The notes under the pieces: generated by a model
The model's input: the letters and a program-made list of their open reading frames with translations, nothing else
Database searches by the model: none
Told to the model about the DNA's origin: nothing
Source of the DNA: Candidatus Kerfeldbacteria bacterium
Lineage (GTDB): Bacteria > Patescibacteriota > Patescibacteriia > SBBC01
Direction: 5' to 3'
Length of the DNA: 64,000 nucleotides
Assembly (NCBI GenBank): GCA_016207275.1
Contig: JACQPY010000007.1
Span: forward strand, 10,265 to 74,264
Part shown: positions 9,703 to 64,000 of the stretch, in pieces
Layout of the letters: every line of letters begins with the position of its first letter
How positions within the stretch are numbered: the first letter of the stretch is position 1
Program-made: the position numbers and the translations under genes

Positions 9703-10727
9703 TAGATACCGATGGGCTGGGCCGTGGCCGGCGGCCGGCGGCCGAGGTGCTTGTAGGCTTCAGCCGTGACCACCCGGCCGCGGGGCGTCCGGCCTAAGAA
9801 ACCGAGCTGTAAGAGAAACGGCTCGTAGACTTCTTCGAGCGTCTCGGTTTCCTCGGCCACGGCCGCGGCAATGGTACCTAGACCAACTGGCCCGCCGCCG
9901 AACTTGTCGATGATCGTTTCCAGGATTCGGCGGTCGATCTCGTCGAGGCCGAGCGTATCAATAGCCAAGGCCTCGAGCGCTTTCGCGGCCAGCGCCGGGC
10001 TGACCGGGCCGTTGCCGGCTTTGACCGCAACGTAGTCGCGAACGCGCTTAAGCAGCCGGTTCGCTACCCGCGGCGTCCGGCGCGATCGACGGGCGATTTC
10101 GGCGGCGGCCTCCGGCGCCAGCGCTACCCCCAGGATGGAACCCGAACGCTTCACGATCTGCTCAACATCCTCTGGCCGGTAGTAGTCAAGCCGAAACGTC
10201 AGGCCGAAACGGTCTCGGAGGGGACTGGACAAGGCGCTCATGCGGGTAGTCGCGCCGATCAGGGTGAACTTCGGCAGATCGAGTCGAATCGTCCGCGCGC
10301 CTGGCCCTTTGCCGACGACTAAATCGAGCTTGAAATCCTCCATCGCCGGGTAGAGGACCTCTTCAATCGTCCGGTTCAGACGGTGCATCTCGTCAATAAA
10401 GAGAATGTCGCCGTCGGCCAGGCTGGTCAGGATGGCCGCCAAATCACCGGCCCGCTCGATCGCTGGTCCGCTGGTGACGCGAATACCGGCGCCTAGTTCG
10501 TGGGCAATGACGTAGGCCAGGGTCGTCTTGCCGAGACCGGGATTGCCGTGCAACAAGATGTGCTCGATTGACTCGCGGCGCTGCTTAGCCGCGGCCAGGG
10601 CGATTTTCAAGTTCTGCTTGATCGCTTCCTGACCAACGTACTCGCTCAGCCGCCGAGGTCTCAACGTCAAATCGATCGTCTGGTCTTCGCTGCCAGCCTC
10701 CTCGGCAATGACCCGTTCATCAGCCAT
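9702..10727 (-). CDS. ruvB: Holliday junction branch migration helicase RuvB
   Basis: Walker [18 protein letters not shown], and a RuvB-type C-terminal winged helix. Confidence 0.9.
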
Positions 10728-13696: not shown

Positions 13697-13972
13697 ATGC
13701 CATACTTTGTCTATGTATTAAGAAGTATCAAGACTGGCAGATTGTACTGTGGGAGCTGTGGTAATATCCAGGTTCGCTTGAAACAGCATAATGCGGGTCA
13801 AGTTGCTTCTACAAGACCGTACAGGCCATGGGAGCTCCTACGGAGCGAAGAATACACCACCAAATCGGAGGCACGAAAAAGAGAGTTACAGTTAAAAAAT
13901 TCTGGTGTTGCACGAAAGCAATTGAAGACAAACCCACAGCATTACATGCCGCCATCGTCTAGTCCGGTCTAG
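13697..13972 (+). CDS. GIY-YIG nuclease family protein (UPF0213/YhbQ-like, URI domain)
   Basis: MPYFVYVLRSIKTGRLYCGSCGNIQVRLKQHN has the GIY-x10-YIG and R/E/N core. Its 3' end reads through into the tRNA-Glu. Confidence 0.6.
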   Translation: MPYFVYVLRSIKTGRLYCGSCGNIQVRLKQHNAGQVASTRPYRPWELLRSEEYTTKSEARKRELQLKNSGVARKQLKTNPQHYMPPSSSPV

Positions 13973-14025
13973 GACGCCAGGTTTTCATCCTGGTAACAGG
14001 GGTTCGAATCCCCTTGGCGGTACCA
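13948..14025 (+). tRNA. tRNA-Glu (anticodon TTC), 78 nt including the encoded CCA
   Basis: Acceptor GCCGCCA/TGGCGGT, anticodon loop TTTTCAT, T-arm AGGGGTTCGAATCCCCT. Close to canonical bacterial tRNA-Glu. Confidence 0.85.
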
Positions 14026-14095
14026 ATCAGCTTTTTCCCGCCACAATAATCCAAAACTTCAAGGAGGGCGGGATCCCGCTCCGCGGGACAAGCTG

Positions 14096-14128
14096 AGAAC
14101 AGGGGTTCGACTCCCCTTGGGGCTACCA
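14096..14128 (+). other. Orphan tRNA 3'-end fragment (T-arm, acceptor 3' strand and CCA), a partial duplicate of the tRNA-Glu 3' end
   Basis: aacaggggttcgactccccttggggctacca versus tRNA-Glu aacaggggttcgaatccccttggcggtacca. No matching 5' acceptor, D or anticodon arm could be folded upstream. Confidence 0.5.
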
Positions 14129-19730: not shown

Positions 19731-20765
19731 ATGACTATTCTAGCAATAGAAACTTCCTGTGACGAAACCTCGGCTGCGGTCATTAAAAGAGACGGCGCGA
19801 TTGCTCGAATCCGCTCAAACATCGTGGCCTCGCAAGTGAAGCTTCACGCCAAGACCGGCGGGGTTGTGCCGGAAGTCGCCGCGCGGGAGCACATCAAACC
19901 GATCATTCCCACCATTGAACGTGCCTTAGCCAAAGCCAAAACTACGGTGCACAACGTTGATGCCCTAGCCGTCACCCTTGGCCCAGGTCTGCACACGGCA
20001 CTTTCGGTTGGCGTGGAAACGGCCAAAGCGCTATCGTACACGCTCGGTCTGCCGCTCATGCCCATCAACCACCTGCACGGCCACATTGCCTCAAACTGGA
20101 ACGCTCGCGCGCCAAAACTTCCAGCCCTCTGCCTGATTGTCTCCGGCGGACACACTGAACTGGTGCTGATTGACCGACGGCGCCGTATCAAGTTACTCGG
20201 CGCCACCCGTGACGATGCAGCCGGCGAAGCCTTTGACAAAGTCGCCCAGCTCTTACGGCTCGGCTACCCGGGCGGGCCAATCATCAGCCAGCTCGCGCAA
20301 CGCGGCAATCCTCGGGCCTTTGACCTGCCGCGGCCAATGCTCGAACACAAAAACTTTGATTTCAGTTTTTCCGGATTGAAAACCGCAGTTCGGTATCTTA
20401 TTGAAAAGAGTCCCCTCCTGCCCGAGGAGGGGACGCGGCGAGGCCGCGGGGAGGTGGGAGACCTTTGCGCCTCATTCCAGCAAGCAATCGTCGATGTGCT
20501 CGTGGCAAAAACTGTTCGCGCGGCAAAACTACACAAGCCCAAAGAAGTGCTGCTGGCCGGCGGCGTGGCCGCAAATACAGAACTTCGGCGGCGGCTGGCG
20601 GGTGAGATCCATAAGCTTAGTTGGAAACCATCATACCACCAGCCGCCGCTTGCGCTTTGCACGGACAACGCCGGCATGATCGGGTTGGCGGCGGCATACT
20701 TCAAAATCCCAATCAAAGCAGACGCCTGGAAAACAGTGGATATCCGACCAACGGTTGTTGTATAA
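19731..20765 (+). CDS. tsaD: tRNA N6-adenosine threonylcarbamoyltransferase TsaD (Kae1/Gcp)
   Basis: MTILAIETSCDETSAAV, HLHGH, and a GGVAAN C-terminal. It contains an in-frame palindromic element at 20409-20459. Confidence 0.9.
   Translation: MTILAIETSCDETSAAVIKRDGAIARIRSNIVASQVKLHAKTGGVVPEVAAREHIKPIIPTIERALAKAKTTVHNVDALAVTLGPGLHTALSVGVETAKALSYTLGLPLMPINHLHGHIASNWNARAPKLPALCLIVSGGHTELVLIDRRRRIKLLGATRDDAAGEAFDKVAQLLRLGYPGGPIISQLAQRGNPRAFDLPRPMLEHKNFDFSFSGLKTAVRYLIEKSPLLPEEGTRRGRGEVGDLCASFQQAIVDVLVAKTVRAAKLHKPKEVLLAGGVAANTELRRRLAGEIHKLSWKPSYHQPPLALCTDNAGMIGLAAAYFKIPIKADAWKTVDIRPTVVV
20409..20459. repeat. Palindromic element inserted in-frame in tsaD (GTCCCCTCCTgcccgAGGAGGGGAC plus a GCGGcgagGCCGC hairpin and a GGGGAGGTGGGAG tail)
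   Basis: The 21-nt core cccctcctgcccgaggagggg differs by 1 nt from the intergenic copy at 26401-26422. It encodes SPLLPEEGTRRGRGEVG in a variable TsaD loop. Confidence 0.7.
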
Positions 20766-20771
20766 AAACTT

Positions 20772-20806
20772 CGGCCGCCCTCTCGATTCACTGAGAGAGC
20801 GGCCGT
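20772..20806. terminator. Bidirectional hairpin terminator between converging tsaD and 20833..21414
   Basis: cggccgccctctc-gattcactga-gagagcggccg. Confidence 0.45.
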
Positions 20807-20832: not shown

Positions 20833-21414
20833 CTACTTTGGCGGAGATGGAATGGGGTAGTCATCGCCCATTTCCAGCTGCGGCGCGCTGGCTGGCTGCA
20901 GCCTGATCGTCACCAGTTGCAGCCCCGGACTCCAGTGGATGCGACGAGTCTTGACGTCGACCCCGCTGTGTCCGGCGGCGGACAGCACCTCCTTCAGTCG
21001 GACCGCGATAGCCTGCGGGTCTGGCACGCCGTCGAAGATCCGATTTGATTCGATGGTCAGCGAGGCTTGCTGCGTGGCCCGGTACTCCTCAACTGCCGGT
21101 CGCAGGTCACGAGGAGTGATCTGTTCGAGCGGCTTTCGGACGGTGAGAATCTTGATCCACACCTCGACCGTCACCTCGCACCACCGATCGAGCAGCTCTT
21201 CAGTGCCCAGTACCCTGGTGCCGACTCTCAAACCGCCCTTTCTGCGAAGGGCGCGTCGCTCGATCAGCGACTTGACTTCGTCACCTTCCTTGCCCCGATT
21301 GACCCGAACGAGGCAGTGGGCAACTCCTCGATGATCGTCGTCCCTCAGAATCTTGTCGAGAAAGTTGTCGAACTGAATTCCGCTGCCGTTTGGCTTGATG
21401 CTGGCTTCGACCAC
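20833..21414 (-). CDS. Hypothetical protein, immediately downstream of the Cas4-like nuclease on the same strand
   Basis: 193-aa ORF lying 36 nt after the nuclease gene. No recognisable motif. Confidence 0.4.
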   Translation of the reverse strand: MVEASIKPNGSGIQFDNFLDKILRDDDHRGVAHCLVRVNRGKEGDEVKSLIERRALRRKGGLRVGTRVLGTEELLDRWCEVTVEVWIKILTVRKPLEQITPRDLRPAVEEYRATQQASLTIESNRIFDGVPDPQAIAVRLKEVLSAAGHSGVDVKTRRIHWSPGLQLVTIRLQPASAPQLEMGDDYPIPSPPK

Positions 21415-21450
21415 GGTTCCCTCCTGTACTTGGTCGGTCCGTCATTGGGT

Positions 21451-22689
21451 TTAACTCACTCTTCGCTTCCTGACGCGAATCCGAGGCAGACTGACGCGCG
21501 GAGCGATGAGCTCTTCCAGGGAAATTTGGACTGGAAGCACCAGCCTGACGAGCTGCTCGTACTCTGCTGCGCGAGCAACGACTTGTGGTTCCTGGGTGAC
21601 CGGGATGACTAGCTGTGAAGGCACCAGTTTCACCTTCTCCAGCCGGTGACGCTCAGCAAATGCTTGGCGAGCGGTTGGCCGCTGACCCAGCTCCCATTCA
21701 CGGCACTGCCTAAACGCCCGGCAGTACCGGCAATGATTCCCGCGCGGGAACAGGGGAGTGATGTCGCCGGTTTCGATGTCTCTCAGTTTCTCGCTGGGTA
21801 GTGTACTGGCTAAGTCAGTCGGCGGACGTCGTCCGAACAACACCCCGTCGAAGTAGGCTTGCTTCTGCCGCAGCTTAAGGTACAGATGCCCAATCTCCCG
21901 GGGAGTGCGGAGCGGCGCGGCTTGGAAGGCGTTCCGACGGTAGTTGTAGATGAACATTCCTCGCAGCGGCGGCTGGCCGGGAATCTTTCCGCGCGCCCGC
22001 AGGTAGTGGTAAGCCAGTTGGTAGAACGTCAGCTGCGTCCCGCTGGCCAAGACCGGGTAGTCGAGCCAGCGATCCTTGTAGTCAACGATCCAGGCGCCGC
22101 TAGGTTGAATGGCAATCCGGTCGATCACGCCATTCAGCTTGAGGCCGTGCCAGTCCAGTCCGTTGAACCGGACTTCGAGCAGATTGATCGTACCGTCGCC
22201 CCGACGTCGGACGTGCCGCTCGTGGAACTTCGTCAGGATCTCGTTACCCTGTTCAAAGAGAACGCCTGGCTGGGCCAAGTACTCCCAGGCAACCTCAACC
22301 GGCTGATTCGGCGGTTTGCGCTGCCGGTTTATCCAGCTGTCGAACTTCTCGAGCGAGTTGAAGGGATTGCGCGGGTTACTGGCAAGGATTCGTCCATCAG
22401 GCATGGTTCGCATGTCGCCGACCGCTCCCCACCATAACCCTCTCCACGCCCCCAAGAAGTCCTTCAGTTGTTCGAACGGATAACGGCCAGTTGACCGATG
22501 CGACGTCAGGAACCGCTGGAACATGTAGTGGTGCGAAATCCCCCAGACTCCCAGCGGAGGCTCCGGGCCGGGCTCCGGAATGATAACTTCCCAGAAGTAG
22601 CGGGCATCGCAAGCGACCGCCGTATCGAAGCCGGTCGCTGACCACATCTTCGAGACGTTGCGGGGATTTCTTGGTCGGTGTCTTTGCAC
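21451..22689 (-). CDS. Cas4/AddB-type PD-(D/E)XK nuclease with a probable 4Fe-4S cluster (DUF83-like), standalone
   Basis: N-terminal Cys (VACDARYF). Nuclease motifs GVIDRIAIQPSGAWIVDYKDRW (D...D...ExK-like DYK). C-terminal C-x2-C-x5-C (CRYCRAFRQC). Confidence 0.6.
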   Translation of the reverse strand: MQRHRPRNPRNVSKMWSATGFDTAVACDARYFWEVIIPEPGPEPPLGVWGISHHYMFQRFLTSHRSTGRYPFEQLKDFLGAWRGLWWGAVGDMRTMPDGRILASNPRNPFNSLEKFDSWINRQRKPPNQPVEVAWEYLAQPGVLFEQGNEILTKFHERHVRRRGDGTINLLEVRFNGLDWHGLKLNGVIDRIAIQPSGAWIVDYKDRWLDYPVLASGTQLTFYQLAYHYLRARGKIPGQPPLRGMFIYNYRRNAFQAAPLRTPREIGHLYLKLRQKQAYFDGVLFGRRPPTDLASTLPSEKLRDIETGDITPLFPRGNHCRYCRAFRQCREWELGQRPTARQAFAERHRLEKVKLVPSQLVIPVTQEPQVVARAAEYEQLVRLVLPVQISLEELIAPRVSLPRIRVRKRRVS

Positions 22690-22707
22690 AATCTCACCTC
22701 CTTGTGG

Positions 22708-23982
22708 TCACTGCATCTGCAGCGCCGCCACGACCTTGCGCCGGTCAAGGGACTGTACCCGGCCGGCGAGAACGACGTTCATTGTCTCCTGCCGGAGAAT
22801 CCGACGGGCCATATACTGAACGCGCGAGGACGCGGTAATGCGGTGCAAGCGGCGTTGGTATGAAGTGCTGCTAACCGGCATTCCCGTGACCAGCACTTGT
22901 TCTGCCAGGAACCCGGCCAATTTGAGTGGACGGGTGTCGCGCAGTTGAGCGTGGTGATCGAGTGACTCGTATGCCGAGGTTAGGTCTTCCTCGGATAATG
23001 GCTTGTCTCGCAACAACCGAAGCTCTTCGGCGATGATGCGCAGCACGCTGACCACGGACTCGGGGCGGCAAGAGGTGATGACCGTCAAGTCACCTTCCTG
23101 CCCGTAGTTCCAGAGTTGCGAGTCAGCCTGGTAGACAAGACCTTCCCCGACGCGCAACCGTTGACGAAGTCGGGCGCTTTTTCGGATTGGCGAGCCGAGG
23201 TGATTGTTGATGAGAGACAAGAGCAGGCGTCGGCGGTCGCCGAACCCGAACGGAATCGGAAAGCCGACGCCGACTTGGACTCGCTCATCAGGCCAAGTGA
23301 TCATCCGCAACCGCAACCGCGATTGGGTGACGTGAAACGGCTCGGACTTGAGCGTCGGGTTGCTCATCAGTCGGCCGAAACGCCGTTCGAGCAGCGGGCG
23401 AACCTCGCCCGGATCGAAGGCCCCGCCGGCGACAATCACCACCGCGTCATGCATGAGCGTGGCGTGCCAGCGTCGGACCATCTCCGGTGTCATCGTCCTT
23501 AAGGCGTTCGCCCGGCCGTAAATGCTTCGACCTAACGCGTGTCCGTGGAAGACTGTCTCCTCCAGCACGTCGGCCAACCGCTCGTCCGGTATTTCCCGAT
23601 TCTCGAATTCCTCCTCCAGGATCGGATTGACGATACGCTGCAGCGTCGTTTTGGTGAACCGCGGGTACAGGACCTGGTCAATCGCCAACTGGACCGACTC
23701 CGCGGCCTTTGACGGACGCGAACGGAAGGAAGCTAAAAGCGCCTCTTGACCAGTTTCGATGAAGTCCGTGTGGACACAATCGGCCGCCCGCGCGAACGCC
23801 AGCGTATCTGGAAATCGTCGACACTCTTCATCAACGAAGTGGTCGATCAGATGCGTTACCCCGAGCAGCTGGTTCGGCTCATACCGTCCGCCGCGGAAGG
23901 CGATACAGAGCGCGAACTCATCGGCCCCCGCATTCGGCACCAGCAGGCACCGGACATGGTTGCGGAATTGCTCCACCTGCAT
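22708..23982 (-). CDS. M16 (pitrilysin)-family protein with a non-canonical HxxDH in place of HxxEH
   Basis: GVTHLIDHFVDE at the zinc-motif position. SD GGGGGAGG lies before MQVEQ (start 23982). M16 two-domain length. Confidence 0.5.
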   Translation of the reverse strand: MQVEQFRNHVRCLLVPNAGADEFALCIAFRGGRYEPNQLLGVTHLIDHFVDEECRRFPDTLAFARAADCVHTDFIETGQEALLASFRSRPSKAAESVQLAIDQVLYPRFTKTTLQRIVNPILEEEFENREIPDERLADVLEETVFHGHALGRSIYGRANALRTMTPEMVRRWHATLMHDAVVIVAGGAFDPGEVRPLLERRFGRLMSNPTLKSEPFHVTQSRLRLRMITWPDERVQVGVGFPIPFGFGDRRRLLLSLINNHLGSPIRKSARLRQRLRVGEGLVYQADSQLWNYGQEGDLTVITSCRPESVVSVLRIIAEELRLLRDKPLSEEDLTSAYESLDHHAQLRDTRPLKLAGFLAEQVLVTGMPVSSTSYQRRLHRITASSRVQYMARRILRQETMNVVLAGRVQSLDRRKVVAALQMQ

Positions 23983-24105
23983 GTGCCACCTCCCCCGTGA
24001 GTAACGAAATGTCAACCATCAGGCAGCTCAACAACAGGACAGTCTTACCAGATTCGTCCGAGCCTGACAAGGGCCTTGTCAACTGCCGACGTTTCGCTTT
24101 TCTTA

Positions 24106-24155
24106 AAACTAAATACCGGTCGCTCCGTCTCTTGTTCTAGAAAGGAACAGGAACG
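24106..24155. other. Long, near-perfect 50-nt stem-loop: CCGGTCGCTCCGT..TGTTCtagaaagGAACA..ACGGAGCGACCGG
   Basis: A 13-bp perfect outer stem plus a nested 5-6 bp inner stem. Intergenic, in a lower-GC patch between the M16-like gene and the DEDD exonuclease gene. Confidence 0.55.
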
Positions 24156-24382
24156 GAGCGACCGGCTTGAAAGAAGTGCAATCCATTATGCGCCCGTACT
24201 TCGGTGCAAAAACCTCGTGGCCGGATTGGACTGCTAGTCCTCGTCTTCGAGAAGCTTCAGCAGCCGAGCTTACTCATCAGGGCGAAAGATCTACGGCGAG
24301 CCGATGAACTGATGCGGCAGGGCTCGCCTCCTTATGCGTAGAGTTTGCCGCCGTTGTTAGAGCGTGGGGGGTGACGTTTTCC

Positions 24383-24988
24383 CTAGAACGTCATTCGCTG
24401 GTCAAGAATCTGATAGACCTGGTGTTCATACCGGGCGCCGTTCAGTCCGCGGTGCGGTTTTGACTCCTCGCCCAATCCGAGGAAAGCGCCAATCGAGGAG
24501 AGTGAAAGTGAGGTGATCCTGCCAGCCAGGAAATCGGGCTTGAGCGCCTCACTAGCAACTGACATCAGGCAATGCCAGTGGTAGTCGCCTTTCCATTTGA
24601 CGCCACCGCGTTGGAAGTAGCGATCCAGCCACCAGAATTCGAAGCTCGCATTGTACGCCCACGGGACGCAGTTGACGGCGAAATCGTTCAAACGTCGGAC
24701 TGCTTCCTCAGCCGGCAAAGCGTCAACCCAGTCCGCAAAGGTGAAGCCGTTGTACCCATTGAAGGAGAGTTCTGCCTCGGACTTCCCGAGGGGATTCGTA
24801 ACCTCGAACTTCAGGTCGAGTTCTCCGAGAACCTCCAGGTTGCGCGGATCGACCTTGACCAGACCGACCTCGCAGATCTCTCCGCCGTCCTCGAAACCCG
24901 TGCCGGTTGTCTCAACGTCCATGAAGAGCTTCGGAAGAAGATGAAAGTTCACCGTCCCAATCGGGCGATCCCTGTTAAGCAATCCCAT
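24383..24988 (-). CDS. DEDD-family 3'-5' exonuclease (DnaQ/RNase T-like)
   Basis: Exo I FMDVETTG. Exo II AYNASFEFWWL (HNAsFD-like). Exo III YQILD (Y-x3-D). Confidence 0.55.
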   Translation of the reverse strand: MGLLNRDRPIGTVNFHLLPKLFMDVETTGTGFEDGGEICEVGLVKVDPRNLEVLGELDLKFEVTNPLGKSEAELSFNGYNGFTFADWVDALPAEEAVRRLNDFAVNCVPWAYNASFEFWWLDRYFQRGGVKWKGDYHWHCLMSVASEALKPDFLAGRITSLSLSSIGAFLGLGEESKPHRGLNGARYEHQVYQILDQRMTF

Positions 24989-25242: not shown

Positions 25243-25965
25243 CTACTTCGACTCCATCTCATTCCCGCAGTTCAGGCACTTGAACAACGATCCACTGCGG
25301 ACGGTCTGATGCCCGCACACATCGCAGAGCGGGAGCGCGCCGCTAGCCGATGGCGCAGCCGCCACCTCTGGCTGCGGCTCGATCCGCACGTCGATCCGGC
25401 ACTTGCCGCCGGGCTCGAGCGGCCAATCCTGCCGAATTACCCCGATCGCGCAGCCGGTTACTCCCGAAATCCTCAGCTTCTCAACGAGAAGAACCTGTAC
25501 TTCTCCTCGTCCGTACGCACGTTCGCTCGGTTTGTCATCGTACGTGTAGATCGCTGTGAACCCCCGACCCCGCTTCACCATCTCGAGGAGGCGCGGGAAT
25601 CCGCTGCCATTGGGAAAGTGTCTCAGCGCTTCGGTAAAGTGGATGACATCGCTCTCGAGCGTGACATGAACATCGACGTCGCGCCACAGTGGATCGATCG
25701 GCCGACCGACTGCCAGAGTGTGAGTCTGAACGTAGTCCACATCCCTCGGGATCGCGTCCAGCTCGAACAGTCTGATCCGGCTGATGAGCGTCTGGACTGA
25801 GACATTGACCGCCTCATCCATGCCCGCTTCCTGCTTTGGCTTGACGGTCGTCTTGAAGGCAATCCTGATGCTGCCGCTCTTCTGTAGCAGCTCGACCAGC
25901 CGCTTCACTTCGTGAACGTGCGTGTTGCTTTCGTTCCCGCCCAGCGTGAAAACTTCGGTTGTCAT
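25243..25965 (-). CDS. Hypothetical protein with an N-terminal PP-loop-like motif and a C-terminal CxxC...CxxC zinc ribbon; weak QueC-like resemblance
   Basis: SD GGAGGGG lies 7 nt before MTTEVFTLGGNESNT, which resembles SGGxDS with L/E substitutions. C-terminal CDVCGHQ-x13-CLNCG. The longer ORF-track start lacks an SD. Confidence 0.45.
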   Translation of the reverse strand: MTTEVFTLGGNESNTHVHEVKRLVELLQKSGSIRIAFKTTVKPKQEAGMDEAVNVSVQTLISRIRLFELDAIPRDVDYVQTHTLAVGRPIDPLWRDVDVHVTLESDVIHFTEALRHFPNGSGFPRLLEMVKRGRGFTAIYTYDDKPSERAYGRGEVQVLLVEKLRISGVTGCAIGVIRQDWPLEPGGKCRIDVRIEPQPEVAAAPSASGALPLCDVCGHQTVRSGSLFKCLNCGNEMESK

Positions 25966-26136
25966 CGAACACCCCTCCATCCACCGCTTTACCGCGGGGT
26001 CCCGCCAAAGGCGGTGACAAGTCCATGCCAGCCTGTCGGCAGCCGCCTGTTTGGCGACCATCACGACCAGCGCCTGCGTCACGAACCTGACCACGCATTC
26101 TTGCATGAAACCCCTGATTTGTCAATCCCAAACCTC

Positions 26137-35985: not shown

Positions 35986-37347
35986 ATGACCAATGAACAA
36001 CTCTGGCAGGTTGTCCTTGGTGAGCTTGAGCTGCTCATCAGTAAAGCTAATTTTACGACGTGGTTTAAGAACACGTTCGTCTTATCGGCTGACCAGGGGA
36101 CCGTGTTGATCGGCGTGCCAAACGCCTTCACCCAGAGCTGGCTGCAGAATAAGTACCACGATCAGATCATCAAAGCGCTTGAACACGCGCTTGACCAAAA
36201 ACCCGTCAAAGTCGAGTATCAGGTCTCGACCCCGAAACGCCACGCCGCCTCGCCCGGCTCGACCCCGACGGTCGACACGGTCGCGCCGAAACCAACCGCC
36301 AACGGAAACGGCCGCATCGAGGACTTCAATCTCAACCCGCGTTACCAGTTCGTGGGTTTTGTCGTTGGTAAGGGCAATGCGCTGGCCCATGCGGCGGCCA
36401 TGGCGGTTAGTGAAAAGCCGGGAGAAACCTACAACCCGCTGTTTATCTACGGCGGCGCTGGTTTGGGCAAGACGCACTTGATGCAGGCCATCGGCCACGA
36501 GGTGTTGCGGCGTTTCCCCGACAAACGCGTTCTGTACGTCAGCTGCGAGCGGTTCACCAACGACTTCATCCAGGCCGTCTCGCGGGGTCAGGCCGAATCG
36601 TTCAAGAAGCGCTACCGCACCGTCGACGTCTTATTGATCGACGATATCCAATTCCTAGCGGGTAAAGAGGGGACGCAGGAAGAATTCTTTCACACCTTCA
36701 ACGCCTTGCACCAAGTTAATCGGCAGATCGTAGTTACCTCCGATCGCCCGCCGAAGTCGATTCCCGCGCTCGAAGCCCGAATCACTTCGCGGTTCGAATG
36801 GGGCATGATTGCCGACATCGCTCAACCCGATTACGAAACACGGACCGCCATTCTTGAATCAAAGTGTAAAGACAAGCGCTACCGCCTATCCGCGGAGATC
36901 CTTCACTTCTTGGCCACCACCATCCAGTCGAACGTCCGTGAGTTGGAGGGCGCACTCAACCGCATCATCGTCTACCAACAACTCAACAACGCCGCGCCGA
37001 CGCTCGACGGGGTCAAGCAGTTGCTGGCCTCGGTCACCAGTCGCGCCCCGCGCGGCGGACTGACCGCCAAGCAGCTGCTCAATACGGTGGCCTCGTTTTA
37101 CGATGTCTCGCTTGACGACATGGTTGGTAACAGCCGCAAGAAGGAGTTGGTGTTACCACGACAAATCGCGATGTTTTTAATGCGCGAAGAACTCAAGAGT
37201 TCGTTCCCCAATATCGGTCACGAGCTTGGTGGGCGGGATCACACGACCGCCATGCACGCCGTCATGAAGATCGGCACTATTGTCGGCAACGACGACAAGC
37301 TTCGTCAGGATATCAACCTTATCCGCCAGCGTCTGTACAACATGTGA
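35986..37347 (+). CDS. dnaA: Chromosomal replication initiator DnaA
   Basis: AAA+ GGAGLGKTHLMQAIG, a sensor, and the C-terminal DNA-binding domain LGGRDHTT. Confidence 0.9.
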   Translation: MTNEQLWQVVLGELELLISKANFTTWFKNTFVLSADQGTVLIGVPNAFTQSWLQNKYHDQIIKALEHALDQKPVKVEYQVSTPKRHAASPGSTPTVDTVAPKPTANGNGRIEDFNLNPRYQFVGFVVGKGNALAHAAAMAVSEKPGETYNPLFIYGGAGLGKTHLMQAIGHEVLRRFPDKRVLYVSCERFTNDFIQAVSRGQAESFKKRYRTVDVLLIDDIQFLAGKEGTQEEFFHTFNALHQVNRQIVVTSDRPPKSIPALEARITSRFEWGMIADIAQPDYETRTAILESKCKDKRYRLSAEILHFLATTIQSNVRELEGALNRIIVYQQLNNAAPTLDGVKQLLASVTSRAPRGGLTAKQLLNTVASFYDVSLDDMVGNSRKKELVLPRQIAMFLMREELKSSFPNIGHELGGRDHTTAMHAVMKIGTIVGNDDKLRQDINLIRQRLYNM

Positions 37348-52935: not shown

Positions 52936-53431
52936 ACCGGCCGGGCCGCGTGCCGCAGACTGCCACGGCCACCGCGTCAGCGGCGTCGTCCGGATGCGGC
53001 GGGCGGTCGAGTTTGAACAACAGCTGGAGCATGCGCTGGACTTGTCGTTTATTAGCTTGACCGTAGCCGGTCACCGATTGCTTAACGGTCAGGGGCGAGA
53101 ACTCCTGGATCGGTAGCCGATGTTCAGCCGCCGCCAGCATCACCACGCCACGCGCCTGACTGACGACCATGGCCGTTTTGACGTTGGTGGAGAAGAACAA
53201 CTGCTCGACCGCCATTCGGTCGGGGCGGTGCTTGGTCATCAGGTCGTGGAGGTTACGATGAAGCGTTGCTAGTCGCTGGCCAACTGGTTGACGGGCTGGC
53301 GTTTCGATGGTCCCGCAGGTCTTGAGCGAGAGTGAGCCGTCAGCCAGTCGAACTACGCCGTAGCCAGTTCGACCGAGGCCGGGATCGATACCCAGCACAA
53401 TTAGTTCAGATGGCGGCGTTCGTGGCGACAT
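52928..53431 (-). CDS. ruvC: Crossover junction endodeoxyribonuclease RuvC
   Basis: LIVLGIDPGLGRTGYGVV. The start was chosen at MSPRT (53431). Confidence 0.8.
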   Translation of the reverse strand: MSPRTPPSELIVLGIDPGLGRTGYGVVRLADGSLSLKTCGTIETPARQPVGQRLATLHRNLHDLMTKHRPDRMAVEQLFFSTNVKTAMVVSQARGVVMLAAAEHRLPIQEFSPLTVKQSVTGYGQANKRQVQRMLQLLFKLDRPPHPDDAADAVAVAVCGTRPGRYD

Positions 53432-54122
53432 CGTTGATATCCTGAAGGTCTTCGAGAGCCAGGAGAAAGTCGGTAACTTTTTCCCGCTGGTCGGCCGGCG
53501 GTGCCATGACGGTAGTTGGAACGAGGGCCAGTTCGGCGTTGAGTACTTCGGCACCGGCCGCCGTCACCGCGTCGCGCACGGCTGCTAGGGCAGTCGGCGA
53601 AGTATAGACGATGACGGAATCGCCTTCCTCGACTACATCCGCGGCGCCGGCGTCAATGGCCGCAAGCTCAACAGCCTCGCGATTGGCGTTGCGCTTGACT
53701 TCAACAAAGCCCCGACGCGCAAACATCCACCGGACGCTGTTGGTGTGGCCAAGGCGGCCGCCGTACTCGGTAAAAACTCGGCGTAGTTCGCCGGCCGTGC
53801 GGTGGCGGTTGTCCGTGAGGGCCTCGACTACCACGGCAATGCCGCCCGGCCCGTAGCCCTCGTAGGTGACCGTGGCCATCGGCCGGTCAGTCGCTTCGCC
53901 GCTGCCGCGTTTGATTGCCCGTTCGACGTTGTCTTTCGGCATGTTGGCAGCGCGGGCCTTCTCGATCGTCAAGCGAAGACGAAAATTGATCGCCGGGTCC
54001 GGGCCACCCTCGCGAGCGGCAATGGTAATGGCGTTTGCCAATTTGGTGAAAGCGATTCCTTTTTTGAGGTCAGCCGTTCCTTTTTGGCGTTTGATTTGTG
54101 CCCATTTCGAATGTCCAGACAT
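53406..54122 (-). CDS. YebC/PmpR-family transcriptional regulator
   Basis: MSGHSKWAQIKRQKG. Start at 54122. Confidence 0.8.
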   Translation of the reverse strand: MSGHSKWAQIKRQKGTADLKKGIAFTKLANAITIAAREGGPDPAINFRLRLTIEKARAANMPKDNVERAIKRGSGEATDRPMATVTYEGYGPGGIAVVVEALTDNRHRTAGELRRVFTEYGGRLGHTNSVRWMFARRGFVEVKRNANREAVELAAIDAGAADVVEEGDSVIVYTSPTALAAVRDAVTAAGAEVLNAELALVPTTVMAPPADQREKVTDFLLALEDLQDINDVATNAAI

Positions 54123-54273
54123 ACAACGATGATGATCCGATTTCGTTCGGATCACACGGCCAGGTCAATCGTGAAGTACCGTGCATTGTATCATTTTTTT
54201 GCATGCTCGTCAATCAAATGGCAGTCGGATAACTTGCATATCGGGTAGCGTTTGCTAAAGTACTGACGTACAC

Positions 54274-55399: not shown

Positions 55400-57082
55400 T
55401 TGGGTCGGAGGCGACGATGTCTTGGCTCACTGCCGTCGTGGCGGTATACTTTTAGTATGCCGTCGTTCGTGACTCGGGTCCGGTCGTGGTATCGTGCCCA
55501 CGGGAGTTGGGTTGGCTACCTAATTGTCTTTTCGTTGGCCTTTATTTTGTTCGCCTATTGGCAGCACCTGCCGCTGTACGCTGATCCCGACTCGTTCTAC
55601 CATGCCAAATTGGCCGTCCTGCTGCGTGACGGTCAATTCGTGACTGACTTTGCCTGGTTGCCGTTTACGACGCTCGCCCAGACCTACGCTGATCAGCACT
55701 TTCTTTACCATCTGTTGCTCGTGCCGTTCGTGAGCCTGACTGACCCGCTGATTGGGTTAAAGTTGGCGACGGTCGTCCTCGGCGCCTTGATGGCGTTGAC
55801 GTTCTACTGGTTTCTCCGCCGCTGGCAGATTCCCTGGGCCTTGGCCACGACGGTAGTTTTGTTGCTGGTCAACCCGTTCAGTTTTCGGATGAACCTGGCC
55901 AAAGCCTCGAGCCTATCGCTGACCTTGTTGCTGATCGGGATCGCCGCCGCCTTTGCCTACCGACCGTGGGTTCTTGGTCTATTGGCCTTTTGCTACGTCT
56001 GGTTCTACGGCGGCTTCCCGCTGCTCGTGGTGGCGACGCTGACGTTCGCGGTGGTCAGCTATCTGCATAAGCGATTCGTTCGGCGTGAAAATCCGAACCT
56101 GTTGCTCCACCGCATCCGCGCCCTCCTGGGACGCCTGTTTCGGCACCGACGGGTTCGCCGTCTTAACCTGCGTATGGCGGTCGCGGTGCTGGCCGGAACC
56201 GGCCTGGGGATTGTGCTCAATCCCTTTTTTCCGGCTAACCTCCGATTCTACCTTGACCAATTTGTTCGCATCGGGATCGTCAACTATCAGAAAACAATCG
56301 GCGTCGGCGGTGAATGGTATCCGTACGGCTTTATTGATTTGATGGCTAACACGGTTTTGGTTTCGATTCCGCTGGTGATCACCATCGTTTTGTTTTTCTT
56401 AAACTGGCGGAAACAGAGCACCCGCTCGATCACCCTGGCCTTACTATGGTTGTTCTTTTTTCTGCTGACGCTCAAGTCGCGCCGCTACGTCGAGTACTAC
56501 GTGCCGTTCGCCTTGCTGTTCGTTGCGTTTTCGCTCCACGATTCACTTCGCCACGTCCGCTTCCGTGACCTCTGGTTTCGGGTGCGGGCCTGGTTTTTAC
56601 GGAGCGGTTGGGCCCGAATCGGCATCGTCGCCTTTGCCACCTACGTCGCCATCGTGCTGCCGACCGTCGTGGTCCGCGACTTGGTGAGTGAGCGACGAGA
56701 TCTCGCCCATGGTTTTCGACTCGACTTGTTTGCCGACGAGAGCCGCTGGATCGCCGAACACAGTCACCCCGGGGCGGTCGTCTTTCACAGCGACTGGGAT
56801 GAATTTCCTACGCTGTTCTACTTCAACAGCTACAACCGTTATATTGCCGGTCTTGATCCGACCTTTTTGTACTTAGAAGATCCAACGCGCTACCGGCAGT
56901 GGGCCAACGTGACGCTCGGCAAGGAAACCGGCGATGTCTATGAGATTATTCGCGGCAGTTTTAATGCCGATTTTGTGTTTGTCGAGCACGACCACCAGGC
57001 GATGGATCGCTTGATTGCGGCCGACGATCGGTTCTCGTTGGTCTACGACGGGCCGGATGCCAAGGTTTACCAGGTTGATTGA
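55400..57082 (+). CDS. GT-C-like polytopic membrane glycosyltransferase (ArnT/PMT-like loop)
   Basis: YADPDSFYHAKLAVLLRDGQF first-loop motif. More than 12 TM segments. The start may be the ATG at about 55457 (MPSFV). Confidence 0.5.
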   Translation: MGRRRRCLGSLPSWRYTFSMPSFVTRVRSWYRAHGSWVGYLIVFSLAFILFAYWQHLPLYADPDSFYHAKLAVLLRDGQFVTDFAWLPFTTLAQTYADQHFLYHLLLVPFVSLTDPLIGLKLATVVLGALMALTFYWFLRRWQIPWALATTVVLLLVNPFSFRMNLAKASSLSLTLLLIGIAAAFAYRPWVLGLLAFCYVWFYGGFPLLVVATLTFAVVSYLHKRFVRRENPNLLLHRIRALLGRLFRHRRVRRLNLRMAVAVLAGTGLGIVLNPFFPANLRFYLDQFVRIGIVNYQKTIGVGGEWYPYGFIDLMANTVLVSIPLVITIVLFFLNWRKQSTRSITLALLWLFFFLLTLKSRRYVEYYVPFALLFVAFSLHDSLRHVRFRDLWFRVRAWFLRSGWARIGIVAFATYVAIVLPTVVVRDLVSERRDLAHGFRLDLFADESRWIAEHSHPGAVVFHSDWDEFPTLFYFNSYNRYIAGLDPTFLYLEDPTRYRQWANVTLGKETGDVYEIIRGSFNADFVFVEHDHQAMDRLIAADDRFSLVYDGPDAKVYQVD

Positions 57083-57089
57083 GCGGCCG

Positions 57090-57734
57090 ATGATTTCCGA
57101 TGACCAGCTGCGGGCGCGTCACCAGGCGGTCCCGCCTGATTACTACGACCGCGGCGTGCGGATCAACGCCTGGCAGCGTGTCTGGCACGAGCGTCGCCGT
57201 CCAATTGTGGAACGATTGCTGATCGGCCGCGGTGGCCGCTTGCTCGACGTCGGCTGCCACGGTGGGTACCTGACGCGGATTATTGCCCAGGCCAGTCGGG
57301 CGGCGGTTACCGGCATCGACATTTCGCCGCCAGCGGTGGCCTACGCCCGGGCGTACGTCCCAGCCGCCCAGTTCGTCGTTGGCGACATCCAGGACGGCCT
57401 GCCGTTTCCCGACGGCAACTTTGAGACGGTGACGGCTTTTGATGTACTCGAGCACGTGCCGCGCCTGGAGTCGGTACTGCGTGAAGTTCACCGCGTGCTC
57501 GCGCCGGGCGGGTTATTTGTAATTGGCGTACCGCGCGAGACGCGGCTGTGGCGTTTGGTGTGGACACTGTGGGTCAAATCGCGCGGCGCAGTCTGGCACG
57601 ACGTCCACGTCCATAAATTCACGCCCGAACGACTGTCTGAGGTGATTACCGCTCAAGGGTTCGGCGAGCGTCAACGCGTGGTATCGCACTGGGGAATGTA
57701 CAGCGTCTTAACGTTTGAACGAGCAAAAAGATGA
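57090..57734 (+). CDS. Class I SAM-dependent methyltransferase
   Basis: LLDVGCHGGYL motif I. VLAPGGLFVIGVP. Confidence 0.7.
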   Translation: MISDDQLRARHQAVPPDYYDRGVRINAWQRVWHERRRPIVERLLIGRGGRLLDVGCHGGYLTRIIAQASRAAVTGIDISPPAVAYARAYVPAAQFVVGDIQDGLPFPDGNFETVTAFDVLEHVPRLESVLREVHRVLAPGGLFVIGVPRETRLWRLVWTLWVKSRGAVWHDVHVHKFTPERLSEVITAQGFGERQRVVSHWGMYSVLTFERAKR

Positions 57735-60295: not shown

Positions 60296-60952
60296 ATGCC
60301 TCGTTCAAAGTTCACCACGCCCGTGCCCGAAACGCTGACCGAGACGTTTCAGTTGGCAAACAAACGTTTCTACCGGGAAGAAGAGGATTACGACTGGGTA
60401 CGCGCGACCGACCGCCTGGTGGGCGTTGAGAGCATTTTTCACAAGTTCCGCGAGCGGACAGTGCGGAAGTTGATCGGACGGTATGGAAGGCCTGGCCAGT
60501 ATCTTGACGCTGGCTGCGGCAGCGGGTTGTTTTTACGACACTTGCCGCCGGGATCGGTGGGACTGGATATAAACCCGCGAAACATCGATCGTGCCCGGCA
60601 GCACGCACCGCACGCCGAGCCGGTGCTCGGTGACATTGAGGCCATGCCGTTCCCTGATGGTACTTTTTCTACCGTCGTCTTGACCGAGGTGATTGAACAC
60701 CTTCCCGATCCGCGACCGGCACTGAGAGAGGTGATGCGCGTAATCACATCGGCCGGAATTGTAATTGGCTCGACCCCGCGACGGAGTATCTTTTGGAAAC
60801 TACGCGGCTTGAGCAGTACATGTCCAGGTGAACCGTTTCACCGCGAGTTTAGCCGTCAGGAGCTATACCAATTGTTAGCGGCTTTTGGTCGGCCGACTGT
60901 CGCCATGAAACATTTCGGCATGACTTGGGCGTTCACGCTTCAGCGGCGATGA
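60296..60952 (+). CDS. Class I SAM-dependent methyltransferase (second)
   Basis: YLDAGCGSGLFL. DGTFSTVVLTEVIEHLPDP. Confidence 0.7.
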   Translation: MPRSKFTTPVPETLTETFQLANKRFYREEEDYDWVRATDRLVGVESIFHKFRERTVRKLIGRYGRPGQYLDAGCGSGLFLRHLPPGSVGLDINPRNIDRARQHAPHAEPVLGDIEAMPFPDGTFSTVVLTEVIEHLPDPRPALREVMRVITSAGIVIGSTPRRSIFWKLRGLSSTCPGEPFHREFSRQELYQLLAAFGRPTVAMKHFGMTWAFTLQRR

Positions 60953-62864: not shown

Positions 62865-64000
62865 GCAACGGCGACCGATGGCGCGGGGCAGCTGCGGTTG
62901 GCCTATGCCTGGTTATTTTGGTTGGTTTCTGGTCAGTCGGCGCGAGCAAAGATTTTTGGTACGATGAGCAATTCGTTAGAACACTGGTTGACCAACCGAT
63001 GACCGAAACAATCAAGCTCCTGAAGTTCGAAAATAGTCCGCCATTTACTTTTGCGGTCGTTTACTGGTGGGAAAAGTTGGTAGGTAGCAGTGAGGTAGCC
63101 CTCCGCGTGCTGTCGCTCGGGCCGACGTTGTTGGGGATTGTTGTTTTGTCTCGGTTTGCTCGGGCGGCTTTTGGTCGGACCAGCGGATTGGTCGTGGCCG
63201 GGTTGGCGAGCGTAGCCAGCCTGGCGGTGACGCAGGCCCTGGAACTGCGAATGTACCCGTGGGTGCTGCTGTGGTCGACCTCAGCTCTGTTCCTGGTACA
63301 TCAGTACGCGTCCAAACCTCGAGCGACAGCATTGATCGCGCTGACCGTAGTTCACGTTCTCGGCTTGTACACGCACTACACGTACGTCGTAGTCGTCGTG
63401 GCGAGCGGCGTGTGGTTGTGGTGGGGAGCAAGAGTACAGCGTCGAGCAATTGCGCTGCACGCTGCGGTAGTCGCAGTGTTATTTTTGCCATGGGTCCTTT
63501 ACTCACTGGTACCAATTGCCCAACATTGGACGACAAGCCTTGGCGTCCAGCAGGACCGGAACCTGCTGGCGATCGCCCTGTTCCCGCTCCGCCTGTTTGC
63601 CATGCCGCTGTTTGGTGAACCGAACTGGCTGACCGTCGTTCGCTTCATGGTCGCGGCGATAATCGGACTAGGCATTTTGTGGTCATTGCGGCTCCTGTTG
63701 CGGCCAACCGACGATCGTAGCGTTGTGGTTCTGCGGTGGCTATTCGGCCTGGTCGTCGGCGGACTGCTGGTACTGGCCCTGGCTGGATTTTCCGATCCAA
63801 AGTACGCGACCGTGTTGGTGCCAGCCGTTATTGCGGTGGTCGCTGTTGGCTTAGTACGGCTACCGCTGCCAGGAGCCGTTCGGGCAGTGTTGATAGTTTT
63901 AGCGGTGGTCGGCGAGCTCGTCGTCAGCTACGCGCACGCTCGCGCGCCGCTGGTGACGTACCGCGAGGCAACCGCAGTGGTTGAGCGCGTGGGACAGACC
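62846..64000 (+). CDS. ArnT/PMT-family GT-C glycosyltransferase, 3' partial (runs off the window). It is absent from the ORF track.
   Basis: The frame is open from the ATG at 62846 to 64000. KDFWYDEQFVRTL first-loop motif. Multiple TM segments. Confidence 0.55.
   Translation, partial: MASATLSNGDRWRGAAAVGLCLVILVGFWSVGASKDFWYDEQFVRTLVDQPMTETIKLLKFENSPPFTFAVVYWWEKLVGSSEVALRVLSLGPTLLGIVVLSRFARAAFGRTSGLVVAGLASVASLAVTQALELRMYPWVLLWSTSALFLVHQYASKPRATALIALTVVHVLGLYTHYTYVVVVVASGVWLWWGARVQRRAIALHAAVVAVLFLPWVLYSLVPIAQHWTTSLGVQQDRNLLAIALFPLRLFAMPLFGEPNWLTVVRFMVAAIIGLGILWSLRLLLRPTDDRSVVVLRWLFGLVVGGLLVLALAGFSDPKYATVLVPAVIAVVAVGLVRLPLPGAVRAVLIVLAVVGELVVSYAHARAPLVTYREATAVVERVGQT

Follow-up and report, generated by a model that had tools for sequence, protein, structure and literature searches.

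We analyzed a 64-kb stretch of DNA, hereafter the window, from a metagenome-assembled genome (MAG) of Candidatus Kerfeldbacteria, a tiny candidate phyla radiation (CPR) bacterium from groundwater. The subject is a gene for a stand-alone iron-sulfur (Fe-S) nuclease of 412 amino acids (aa), which is 100% identical to the 'PD-(D/E)XK nuclease family protein' annotated in that genome, together with the two genes that flank it on the same strand. An earlier note on this DNA had described the enzyme as a Cas4/AddB-type nuclease with a co-directional partner gene.

A tight three-gene unit

The nuclease gene is the middle member of a tight co-directional unit consisting of an M16 peptidase-like gene, the nuclease gene, a gene for a 193-aa protein and a terminator:

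22708-24015, minus strand: M16 peptidase-like gene, the first gene of the predicted operon
21451-22689, minus strand: nuclease open reading frame (ORF), 412 aa, a stand-alone Fe-S RecB-type enzyme of PF12705 (PDDEXK_1)
20833-21414, minus strand: ORF of the 193-aa protein, starting 36 nucleotides (nt) after the nuclease (gap 21415-21450)
20772-20805, minus strand: intrinsic-terminator-like hairpin with a 13-bp stem (10 GC pairs) followed by a T run, between the 193-aa gene and the convergent tsaD
19731-20765, convergent with the 193-aa gene: tsaD, assigned by translation and by TsaD matches at the syntenic position in relatives

Inspected by eye, the M16-like gene probably starts at the ATG at 23982, which follows GGAGGTG, and its stop lies 18 nt before the nuclease start. 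The nuclease itself starts with GTG. The NCBI start call gives a protein of 398 aa; we favor the 412-aa version because the GTG is preceded by a strong Shine-Dalgarno sequence (AAGGAGGTG, 22695-22703) and because relatives also begin MQGH.... The 193-aa gene likewise starts with GTG, with the strong Shine-Dalgarno sequence AGGAGGG at 21419-21425. The hairpin at 20772-20805 closes the unit and is shared with tsaD. Between 20600 and 24500 the only sigma-70-like match falls inside the 193-aa gene and is at chance level.

A second hairpin, which is long and GC-rich (GGTCGCTCCGT...ACGGAGCGACC) and runs into a T-rich stretch, was seen by eye at 24105-24163 on the minus strand, between the M16-like gene and an upstream gene for a DEDD exonuclease. 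The terminator scan missed it, probably owing to its long loop, and it probably separates two transcription units.

An AddB/Cas4-like nuclease with a complete set of motifs

PDDEXK_1 is the sole Pfam domain of the nuclease (E=3.3e-13, 50.6 bits against a cutoff of 22), matched over residues 16-330 and over positions 2-247 of the 247-position profile. No helicase or inactivated-helicase domain is present, and the protein has no signal peptide or membrane features. The catalytic and cysteine motifs lie as follows:

22609-22611, minus strand: Cys27 codon, predicted N-terminal Fe-S ligand, kept in >90% of 40 family members
22075-22122, minus strand: RecB motifs II-III, from D190 (GVIDRI) to D203-Y-K205 (IVDYK), with D190 and K205 invariant
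22021-22035, minus strand: QxxxY motif, Q219-LTF-Y223, invariant in the 40 members
21703-21732, minus strand: C320-x2-C323-x5-C329, predicted Fe-S cysteine cluster, invariant in the 40 members

Across the 40 aligned family members, all of which match PF12705, residues H54, E172, D190, K205, Q219, Y223, C320, C323 and C329 never vary, and more than 90% of the members retain C27 and D203. As far as the sequence can tell, the RecB-type active site (H54, E172, D190, D203-x-K205 and Q219xxxY223) is complete and catalytically intact. C27, C320, C323 and C329 correspond to the cysteines that hold the Fe-S cluster in AddB and Cas4, and such a cluster is predicted here. Because all these positions are conserved across the 40-member alignment, the active site and the four cysteines are intact and under selection. 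The ORF, N-terminal Cys, RecB motifs and C-x2-C-x5-C cluster on which the earlier note had built its assignment are present and conserved in all or nearly all members.

An AlphaFold2 (AF2) model of the nuclease, built from only 7 sequences, has a predicted local distance difference test (pLDDT) score of 72, with a confident core, values below 50 for residues 354-412 and an N-terminal part that forms the helical Fe-S staple region of the Cas4/AddB type. The closest folds found by Foldseek were the nuclease domains of mycobacterial AdnA and AdnB, ACE1 and AddB, with Dna2 (5eax) and Cas4 lower down. AdnA and AdnB were also the top PDB sequence matches of the family profile. Further matches were to phrog_69 'exonuclease' (E=2.8e-7) and, partially, to the Cas4 model of PADLOC (E=4e-5). 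Those to DUF2800 and to the Dna2 Pfam family were weak and partial, the latter family being weakly matched by 3 of the 40 members. A profile match to HMGB1 boxes (positions 282-355, E 0.02-0.16) was non-significant and overlapped the cysteine cluster, and it was rejected.

Judged by profile scores, the nuclease is not Cas4 sensu stricto. The Cas4 model TIGR00372 scored 13.4 bits against a cutoff of 65, over residues 300-329 only. PF01930 (DUF83) did not match the window protein at E<=1 and matched 3 of the 40 family members weakly (best E=0.0016). The DUF83/Cas4 profile search proposed in the earlier note as a check was therefore negative: the description as a stand-alone Fe-S PD-(D/E)XK nuclease of AddB/Cas4-like type holds, whereas an identity as Cas4 proper does not. 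The enzyme is a 'Cas4-like protein of pfam12705', a non-CRISPR group in Hudaiberdiev et al. 2017 (PMC5704561). The annotation of the nuclease, its place in PF12705 and the occurrence of solo Cas4-like genes in CPR bacteria (PMC5704561) were already known.

A C-terminal tail with clamp-binding-type motifs

The protein extends past its last Cys by 83 aa; a C-terminal extension had been reported previously, at a length of 70 aa that is too short. The first ~45 residues are conserved (W332, E333, P338, R341, Q359, P363). The tail is otherwise divergent, and its conserved part is a short linear motif:

21598-21621, minus strand: putative beta-clamp-binding-type motif P357-S-Q359-L-V-I-P363-V364, in the low-pLDDT tail
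21454-21597, minus strand: remaining tail, residues 365-412, which holds VQISLEEL, a degenerate second motif, and ends in the basic RIRVRKRRVS

Across the family this first motif lies 28-38 aa after the last Cys and has the consensus P-[TND]-Q-[LI]-x-[LI]-P-[LF]; QLVIPV of the window occupies the position homologous to QIRMPL, QIPLPL, QLRLPL, QLRLPF and QLVLPF of relatives. Short-tailed members end in the first motif (...HQLKLFS, ...EQLELCFG, ...CQPDLPF, ...IQQELFS, ...RQLVLPFQE), and long-tailed members carry a second copy 6-8 aa from the end (QLSLDF, QLSLEV, QLTLGL, QLELF, QIDLSL, QLDLAL). These motifs agree with the bacterial clamp-binding consensus QL[S/D]LF, revised to Q-phi-x-[L/M]-[F/L] and Q-phi-x-[L/M]-x-[F/L] (bioRxiv 10.1101/2025.08.20.671105; PMC9690074).

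In the 59 tails the strict consensus, Q-phi-x-[L/M]-(x)-[F/L], has 26 sites, distributed over 25 proteins (6.3 per 1000 aa). The protein bodies have a single one (0.06 per 1000 aa), an approximately 100-fold enrichment in the tails. Shuffling the tails 2000 times gave 2.5 +/- 1.6 strict sites, with a maximum of 8, against the 26 observed. Because 35 of 53 family members, but only 4 of 64 more distant PF12705 relatives, carry a looser form of the motif within their last 12 residues, we regard the tail motif as specific to this nuclease family. In a single literature search on Cas4 together with clamp binding, no paper among the matches listed dealt with both. The tail motifs and the recurrent linkage to an M16-like gene described below are new observations. 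Neither the conserved M16-like gene upstream nor the clamp-binding-type tail motifs had been picked up in the earlier note.

A CPR-restricted family in housekeeping contexts

An exhaustive profile search returned ~42 cluster representatives at E<1e-30, all of them stand-alone proteins of 320-440 aa; beyond this set the matches grade into AddB/AdnAB-like proteins of ~1000 aa. A strict DNA pattern (D..P..PRG.HC.YC), which fits only about a third of family members, was found in 5 GTDB species genomes, all of them CPR-type MAGs, and a metagenome scan for relatives returned 2 short contigs. A further word-index search, using the profile of 40 sequences, brought in two more proteins. The nuclease is a member of a CPR-restricted subfamily. 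In a rough neighbor-joining tree the family falls into two groups, one short-tailed and the other long-tailed.

Among the genes of the window are dnaA, dnaN, yidC, tsaD, tsaE, ValRS, TyrRS, ruvB, ruvC and genes for penicillin-binding proteins, together with cell-wall, polysaccharide and glycogen genes. The replication genes are placed as follows:

35986-37347: dnaA
37598-38695, plus strand: dnaN

Because yidC, dnaA and dnaN cluster between 33000 and 38700 and the cumulative GC skew turns near 33-36 kb, the data indicate a chromosomal replication origin ~12-15 kb from the nuclease operon, and the window is core chromosome close to the origin. The GC content of the nuclease locus equals that of its flanks, and the gene order ValRS...M16-nuclease...TsaD is preserved in three related loci (L001, L002 and L004; labels are those of the neighborhood survey). 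Synteny and composition indicate that the nuclease gene is vertically inherited.

Gene neighborhoods were inspected at ~12 independent loci. In 7 of them (the window, L001, L002, L003, L004, L010 and L013) the gene immediately upstream of the nuclease, and on its strand, is M16-like. The linkage is missing in L007, L008, L011, L018 and L020. The nuclease precedes the mraZ/dcw cluster in L011, L016/L017 and L020/L021, lies between ArgRS and DnaB in L007, has ArgRS upstream in L008 too, and is isolated among housekeeping genes in L018. A UvrD helicase gene (700-715 aa) lies upstream on the same strand in two loci, adjacent to the nuclease in L011 and two genes away in L020. A LexA gene is also found just upstream of the nuclease in L011. 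These features lie at L011:1631-6444 and L020:2286-4433.

These neighborhoods bear on two other explanations. In the first, the enzyme would be a solo Cas4-like nuclease acting in defense or against mobile elements, and the 193-aa protein would be a subunit that gives it specificity or regulates it. Solo Cas4 and PF12705 Cas4-like genes are often found in defense contexts and in phages, and they are over-represented in CPR bacteria (PMC5704561). ACE1, a defense-associated Cas4-family enzyme, is among the best fold matches, and the PADLOC Cas4 and phrog_69 matches given above point the same way. However, no restriction, Argonaute, cas or other defense operon surrounds the nuclease at the ~12 loci, whose contexts are all housekeeping; the signs of vertical inheritance also speak against such a role, as does the confinement of the supposed partner to one clade. 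Searches of phage and plasmid collections (tblastn) and a scan of IMG/VR found no relatives, so the phage or defense-island setting raised by the earlier note found no support there. Its statement that the window lacks cas genes and a repeat array was borne out: there is no CRISPR-like array in the 64 kb, and neither cas nor other defense genes occur among the 47 larger ORFs scanned against Pfam (larger ORFs outside these scans include 60296-60952, 63045-63536, 57015-57734 and 53406-54155). We consider a defense role distinctly unlikely.

In the second, the protein would be the nuclease half of a split AddAB/AdnAB-type enzyme that resects double-strand breaks together with a UvrD/PcrA-type helicase encoded elsewhere, and the tail motif would have no role in this or would act with some other partner. 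By structure and by sequence, the nuclease domains of AdnA, AdnB and AddB are the best relatives, the UvrD genes of L011 and L020 stand just upstream in distant members of the family, and operons of UvrD and Cas4-like genes are known in Clostridiales (PMC5704561). Against this, the nuclease has no helicase domain and most loci have no UvrD/AddA-like ORF; a phmmer search with a UvrD helicase query found none in the window, and the gene is not a fragment of an AddAB operon. A split enzyme of this kind is unlikely in our estimate. It would also overlap, and be compatible with, recruitment by the sliding clamp, as E. coli RecB has itself been reported to bind the clamp (bioRxiv 10.1101/2025.08.20.671105).

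The M16-like and 193-aa neighbors

The M16-like gene is a long-standing operon neighbor of the nuclease. Its product matches Peptidase_M16_C (E=1.2e-18) and Peptidase_M16 (E=2e-5). At the position of the catalytic HxxEH motif the window protein has H55-L-I-D-H59, whereas all 6 nuclease-adjacent homologs have HxxEH; the distal E135 is invariant. By its sequence, the window protein may be a peptidase that has been inactivated or weakened in its own lineage.

Such linkage could mean that the two proteins form a functional pair, with the clam-shell M16 protein acting as a non-proteolytic scaffold or regulator, or as a peptidase that matures or controls the nuclease; the two together would then be the actual functional unit, which would account for their conserved adjacency. 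The 7 independent loci with an upstream M16-like gene contain nucleases that span 33-82% identity and are scattered over the long-tail half of the family tree; in L010 and L013 the M16-like gene overlaps the nuclease start by 32-35 nt, and the HLIDH of the window copy would fit a non-proteolytic role. Set against this are the five loci that lack the link and the M16 homologs themselves: because 6 of 7 keep an intact HxxEH, a normal peptidase role is likely for these proteins. Overlapping co-directional genes without a functional relation are common in compact CPR genomes, and we know of no precedent for a complex of an M16 protein with a nuclease. We regard a functional pair as very unlikely.

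The 193-aa protein matched no family in Pfam, NCBIfam, PADLOC or PHROGs, in keeping with its first description as a co-directional ORF without recognizable domain. A word search found 5 homologs. The gene is confined to the clade of the window, namely the window itself, L004, L002, a divergent copy in L001 (E=1.7e-5) and three short contigs, and is absent or undetectable beside the nuclease in L003, L007, L011, L013, L016, L018 and L020. The proposal that it is the specificity or regulatory component of the nuclease largely falls with this distribution, the pair being conserved only in the window clade.

An AF2 model of the 193-aa protein (pLDDT 82) has two tandem beta-alpha-beta-alpha-beta-beta units, and its fold matches SpoVS, Alba/Sso10b and IF3-C weakly (E 0.01-0.08). 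Because these matches are weak, a nucleic-acid-binding role, suggested by the model, is only a guess. An origin by tandem duplication was set aside: the halves share no sequence similarity, and only the predicted topology supports it. The C-terminal tail (20833-20880, minus strand) carries a conserved Q-x-x-[L/M] motif, PQLEMGDDYPIPS in the window, with the counterparts TQTELPEF at the L002 C-terminus (9820-9858) and QPDLEF in L001 (10400-10498). The motif is faintly like clamp- or PCNA-binding peptides, as seen in few sequences. We conclude that the 193-aa protein is an accessory specific to one clade. Its fold possibly binds nucleic acids, and it is not a general specificity subunit.

Proposed recruitment by the sliding clamp

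Given these observations, we judge the chances about even that the nuclease is a clamp-recruited, vertically inherited housekeeping DNA repair enzyme of a CPR bacterium, the link to the clamp being predicted from the tail motifs. Its C-terminal tail would dock as a peptide on the beta sliding clamp (DnaN), and the clamp would recruit the nuclease to the DNA that it marks, for example at primer-template junctions, at gaps and at forks that have stalled or broken. Like domains of the Cas4, AddB and Dna2 type, the enzyme would act at these sites by cutting or resecting 5'-ended single strands or flaps. Its role would thereby be in replication-coupled repair or recombination, in a lineage whose window showed neither AddAB nor RecBCD genes.

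Several points weigh against this proposal. The motif of the window, QLVIPV, fails the strict consensus at two positions (I at 4, V at 6), although the homologous site is canonical in many relatives. The window clade has lost the terminal copy, in place of which it has the basic tail RIRVRKRRVS. Docking on the clamp is predicted from sequence motifs only, and their conservation points to constraint, not to a particular binding target; given the relatedness of the family sequences, the motif counts do not represent independent events. The AF2 model, with its 7 sequences and low tail confidence, is weak evidence for disorder of the tail. The gene survey describes the 64-kb window and does not show an organism-wide lack of AddAB, RecBCD, MutSL or a flap nuclease. 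End resection, flap removal and mismatch-type repair are not told apart as pathway or substrate by the motifs, and the recurrent M16 linkage is unexplained by the clamp model.

A different role would be salvage, in which the nuclease degrades imported or damaged DNA to feed nucleotide-auxotrophic cells. CPR bacteria rely on scavenged nucleotides, and the window also encodes a PilB-type ATPase, a DHH phosphoesterase and the DEDD exonuclease-like protein. Yet a cytoplasmic Fe-S enzyme without signal peptide or membrane features is unlikely as a bulk DNase, the conserved clamp-type tail motifs favor targeted recruitment, and the family is rare even within CPR bacteria, the 5 species genomes noted above having been found with a pattern that fits about a third of its members. 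We give salvage very little credence.

Extending clamp recruitment to the whole family, it is conceivable, though on the doubtful side, that CPR-restricted, helicase-less Fe-S nucleases guided by the clamp through one or two C-terminal motifs fill a missing pathway (resection, flap removal or NucS-like correction), and that in some clades they form a module with an M16-type protein and a small Alba/SpoVS-like one, the latter with a Q-x-x-[L/M] motif in its own tail.

The role of solo Cas4-like nucleases in tiny CPR genomes has been a question since 2017 (PMC5704561), and for this subfamily the clamp-type tail makes it directly testable. If the clamp proposal is true, these enzymes would join NucS and RecB as the third type of RecB-fold nuclease linked to the clamp, and would show how replication-coupled repair is organized in extremely reduced bacteria without a helicase-nuclease machine. 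If it is not, what remains is the ordinary 'PD-(D/E)XK nuclease family protein' of the annotation, beside a small neighbor specific to the clade.

Other features of the window

Upstream of the operon, on the minus strand, lie the small DEDD/RNase T-like exonuclease gene (24383-24988), which has weak Pfam and NCBIfam matches, and a gene for a 287-aa protein of no family (25243-26106) with a C-terminal zinc-ribbon-like CxxC...CxxC. Neither gene is at the corresponding position in L001.

A tRNA-Glu gene (TTC) is located at 13948-14025 on the plus strand. About 100 nt downstream is an 86%-identical copy of the 3' 36 nt of the tRNA (14093-14128, plus strand), which sits within a sub-threshold tRNA-like match (14040-14124, 18.9 bits). 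Either a second tRNA that has decayed or the scar of an old integration could explain it; in the ~1 kb that follows there are only ORFs without family match.

Between 45556 and 47589 on the minus strand, a 677-aa protein with two APH-type kinase-like stretches is encoded within a glycogen/starch cluster that includes GH57, two starch synthases, GH15 and a GalT-like gene. Its product is possibly a maltokinase-like enzyme.

Comparison with known systems

The nuclease resembles the solo Cas4 and pfam12705 Cas4-like proteins surveyed previously (PMC5704561) in being stand-alone, non-CRISPR, encoded in small CPR genomes and apparently vertically inherited. Unlike there, the PF12705 contexts of the survey (UvrD fusions, restriction-modification/Dcm loci and COG1205 helicases) were not found here. 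M16 is unmentioned in that survey, whose text gave no match to 'peptidase'.

With the C-terminal domains of AddB, AdnA and AdnB, which are its best fold and profile matches, the nuclease shares PF12705, the RecB motifs and the Fe-S cysteine staple (N-terminal Cys plus C-x2-C-x5-C). Those domains, however, are fused to superfamily 1 (SF1) helicase or helicase-like modules of ~1000 aa and are encoded with a partner helicase-nuclease. By contrast, the window protein is a 412-aa stand-alone enzyme with a tail of clamp-type motifs, and there is neither a helicase fusion nor an adjacent AddA/AdnB/UvrD-type gene, nor any helicase gene of this kind in the 64 kb.

ACE1 is the top whole-chain match among stand-alone proteins (TM-score by target 0.55-0.61). 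It differs in being a Cas4-family enzyme that is co-encoded with a long-A prokaryotic Argonaute (pAgo) and acts in defense, and sequence identity is 12%. Dna2, matched in fold by 5eax, is likewise an Fe-S PD-(D/E)XK nuclease, acting in 5'-flap processing and end resection at replication forks. Unlike the window nuclease, which has no helicase domain, it is eukaryotic or archaeal, is fused to a helicase and threads single-stranded DNA through a tunnel.

Two systems offer precedents for a link between a RecB-fold nuclease and the clamp. E. coli RecB, a RecB-family nuclease, has been reported to bind the beta clamp through QVEMEF, a motif of the Q-x-x-M-x-F type (bioRxiv 10.1101/2025.08.20.671105). 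That motif is inside the folded nuclease domain of a three-subunit machine, whereas here the motif lies in a terminal, predicted disordered tail and is often duplicated. In NucS/EndoMS, a RecB-fold nuclease, a short C-terminal motif docks on the clamp, which activates the enzyme in replication-coupled repair (PMC8228993). NucS carries a mismatch-binding beta-barrel at its N-terminus and lacks an Fe-S cluster, and no NucS-family Pfam match was found for the window nuclease (E<=1) or the 40 family members (E<=0.1). For a clamp-tethered PD-(D/E)XK nuclease, as proposed here, NucS/EndoMS is the closest functional analogy, an analogy and not a homology beyond the fold.

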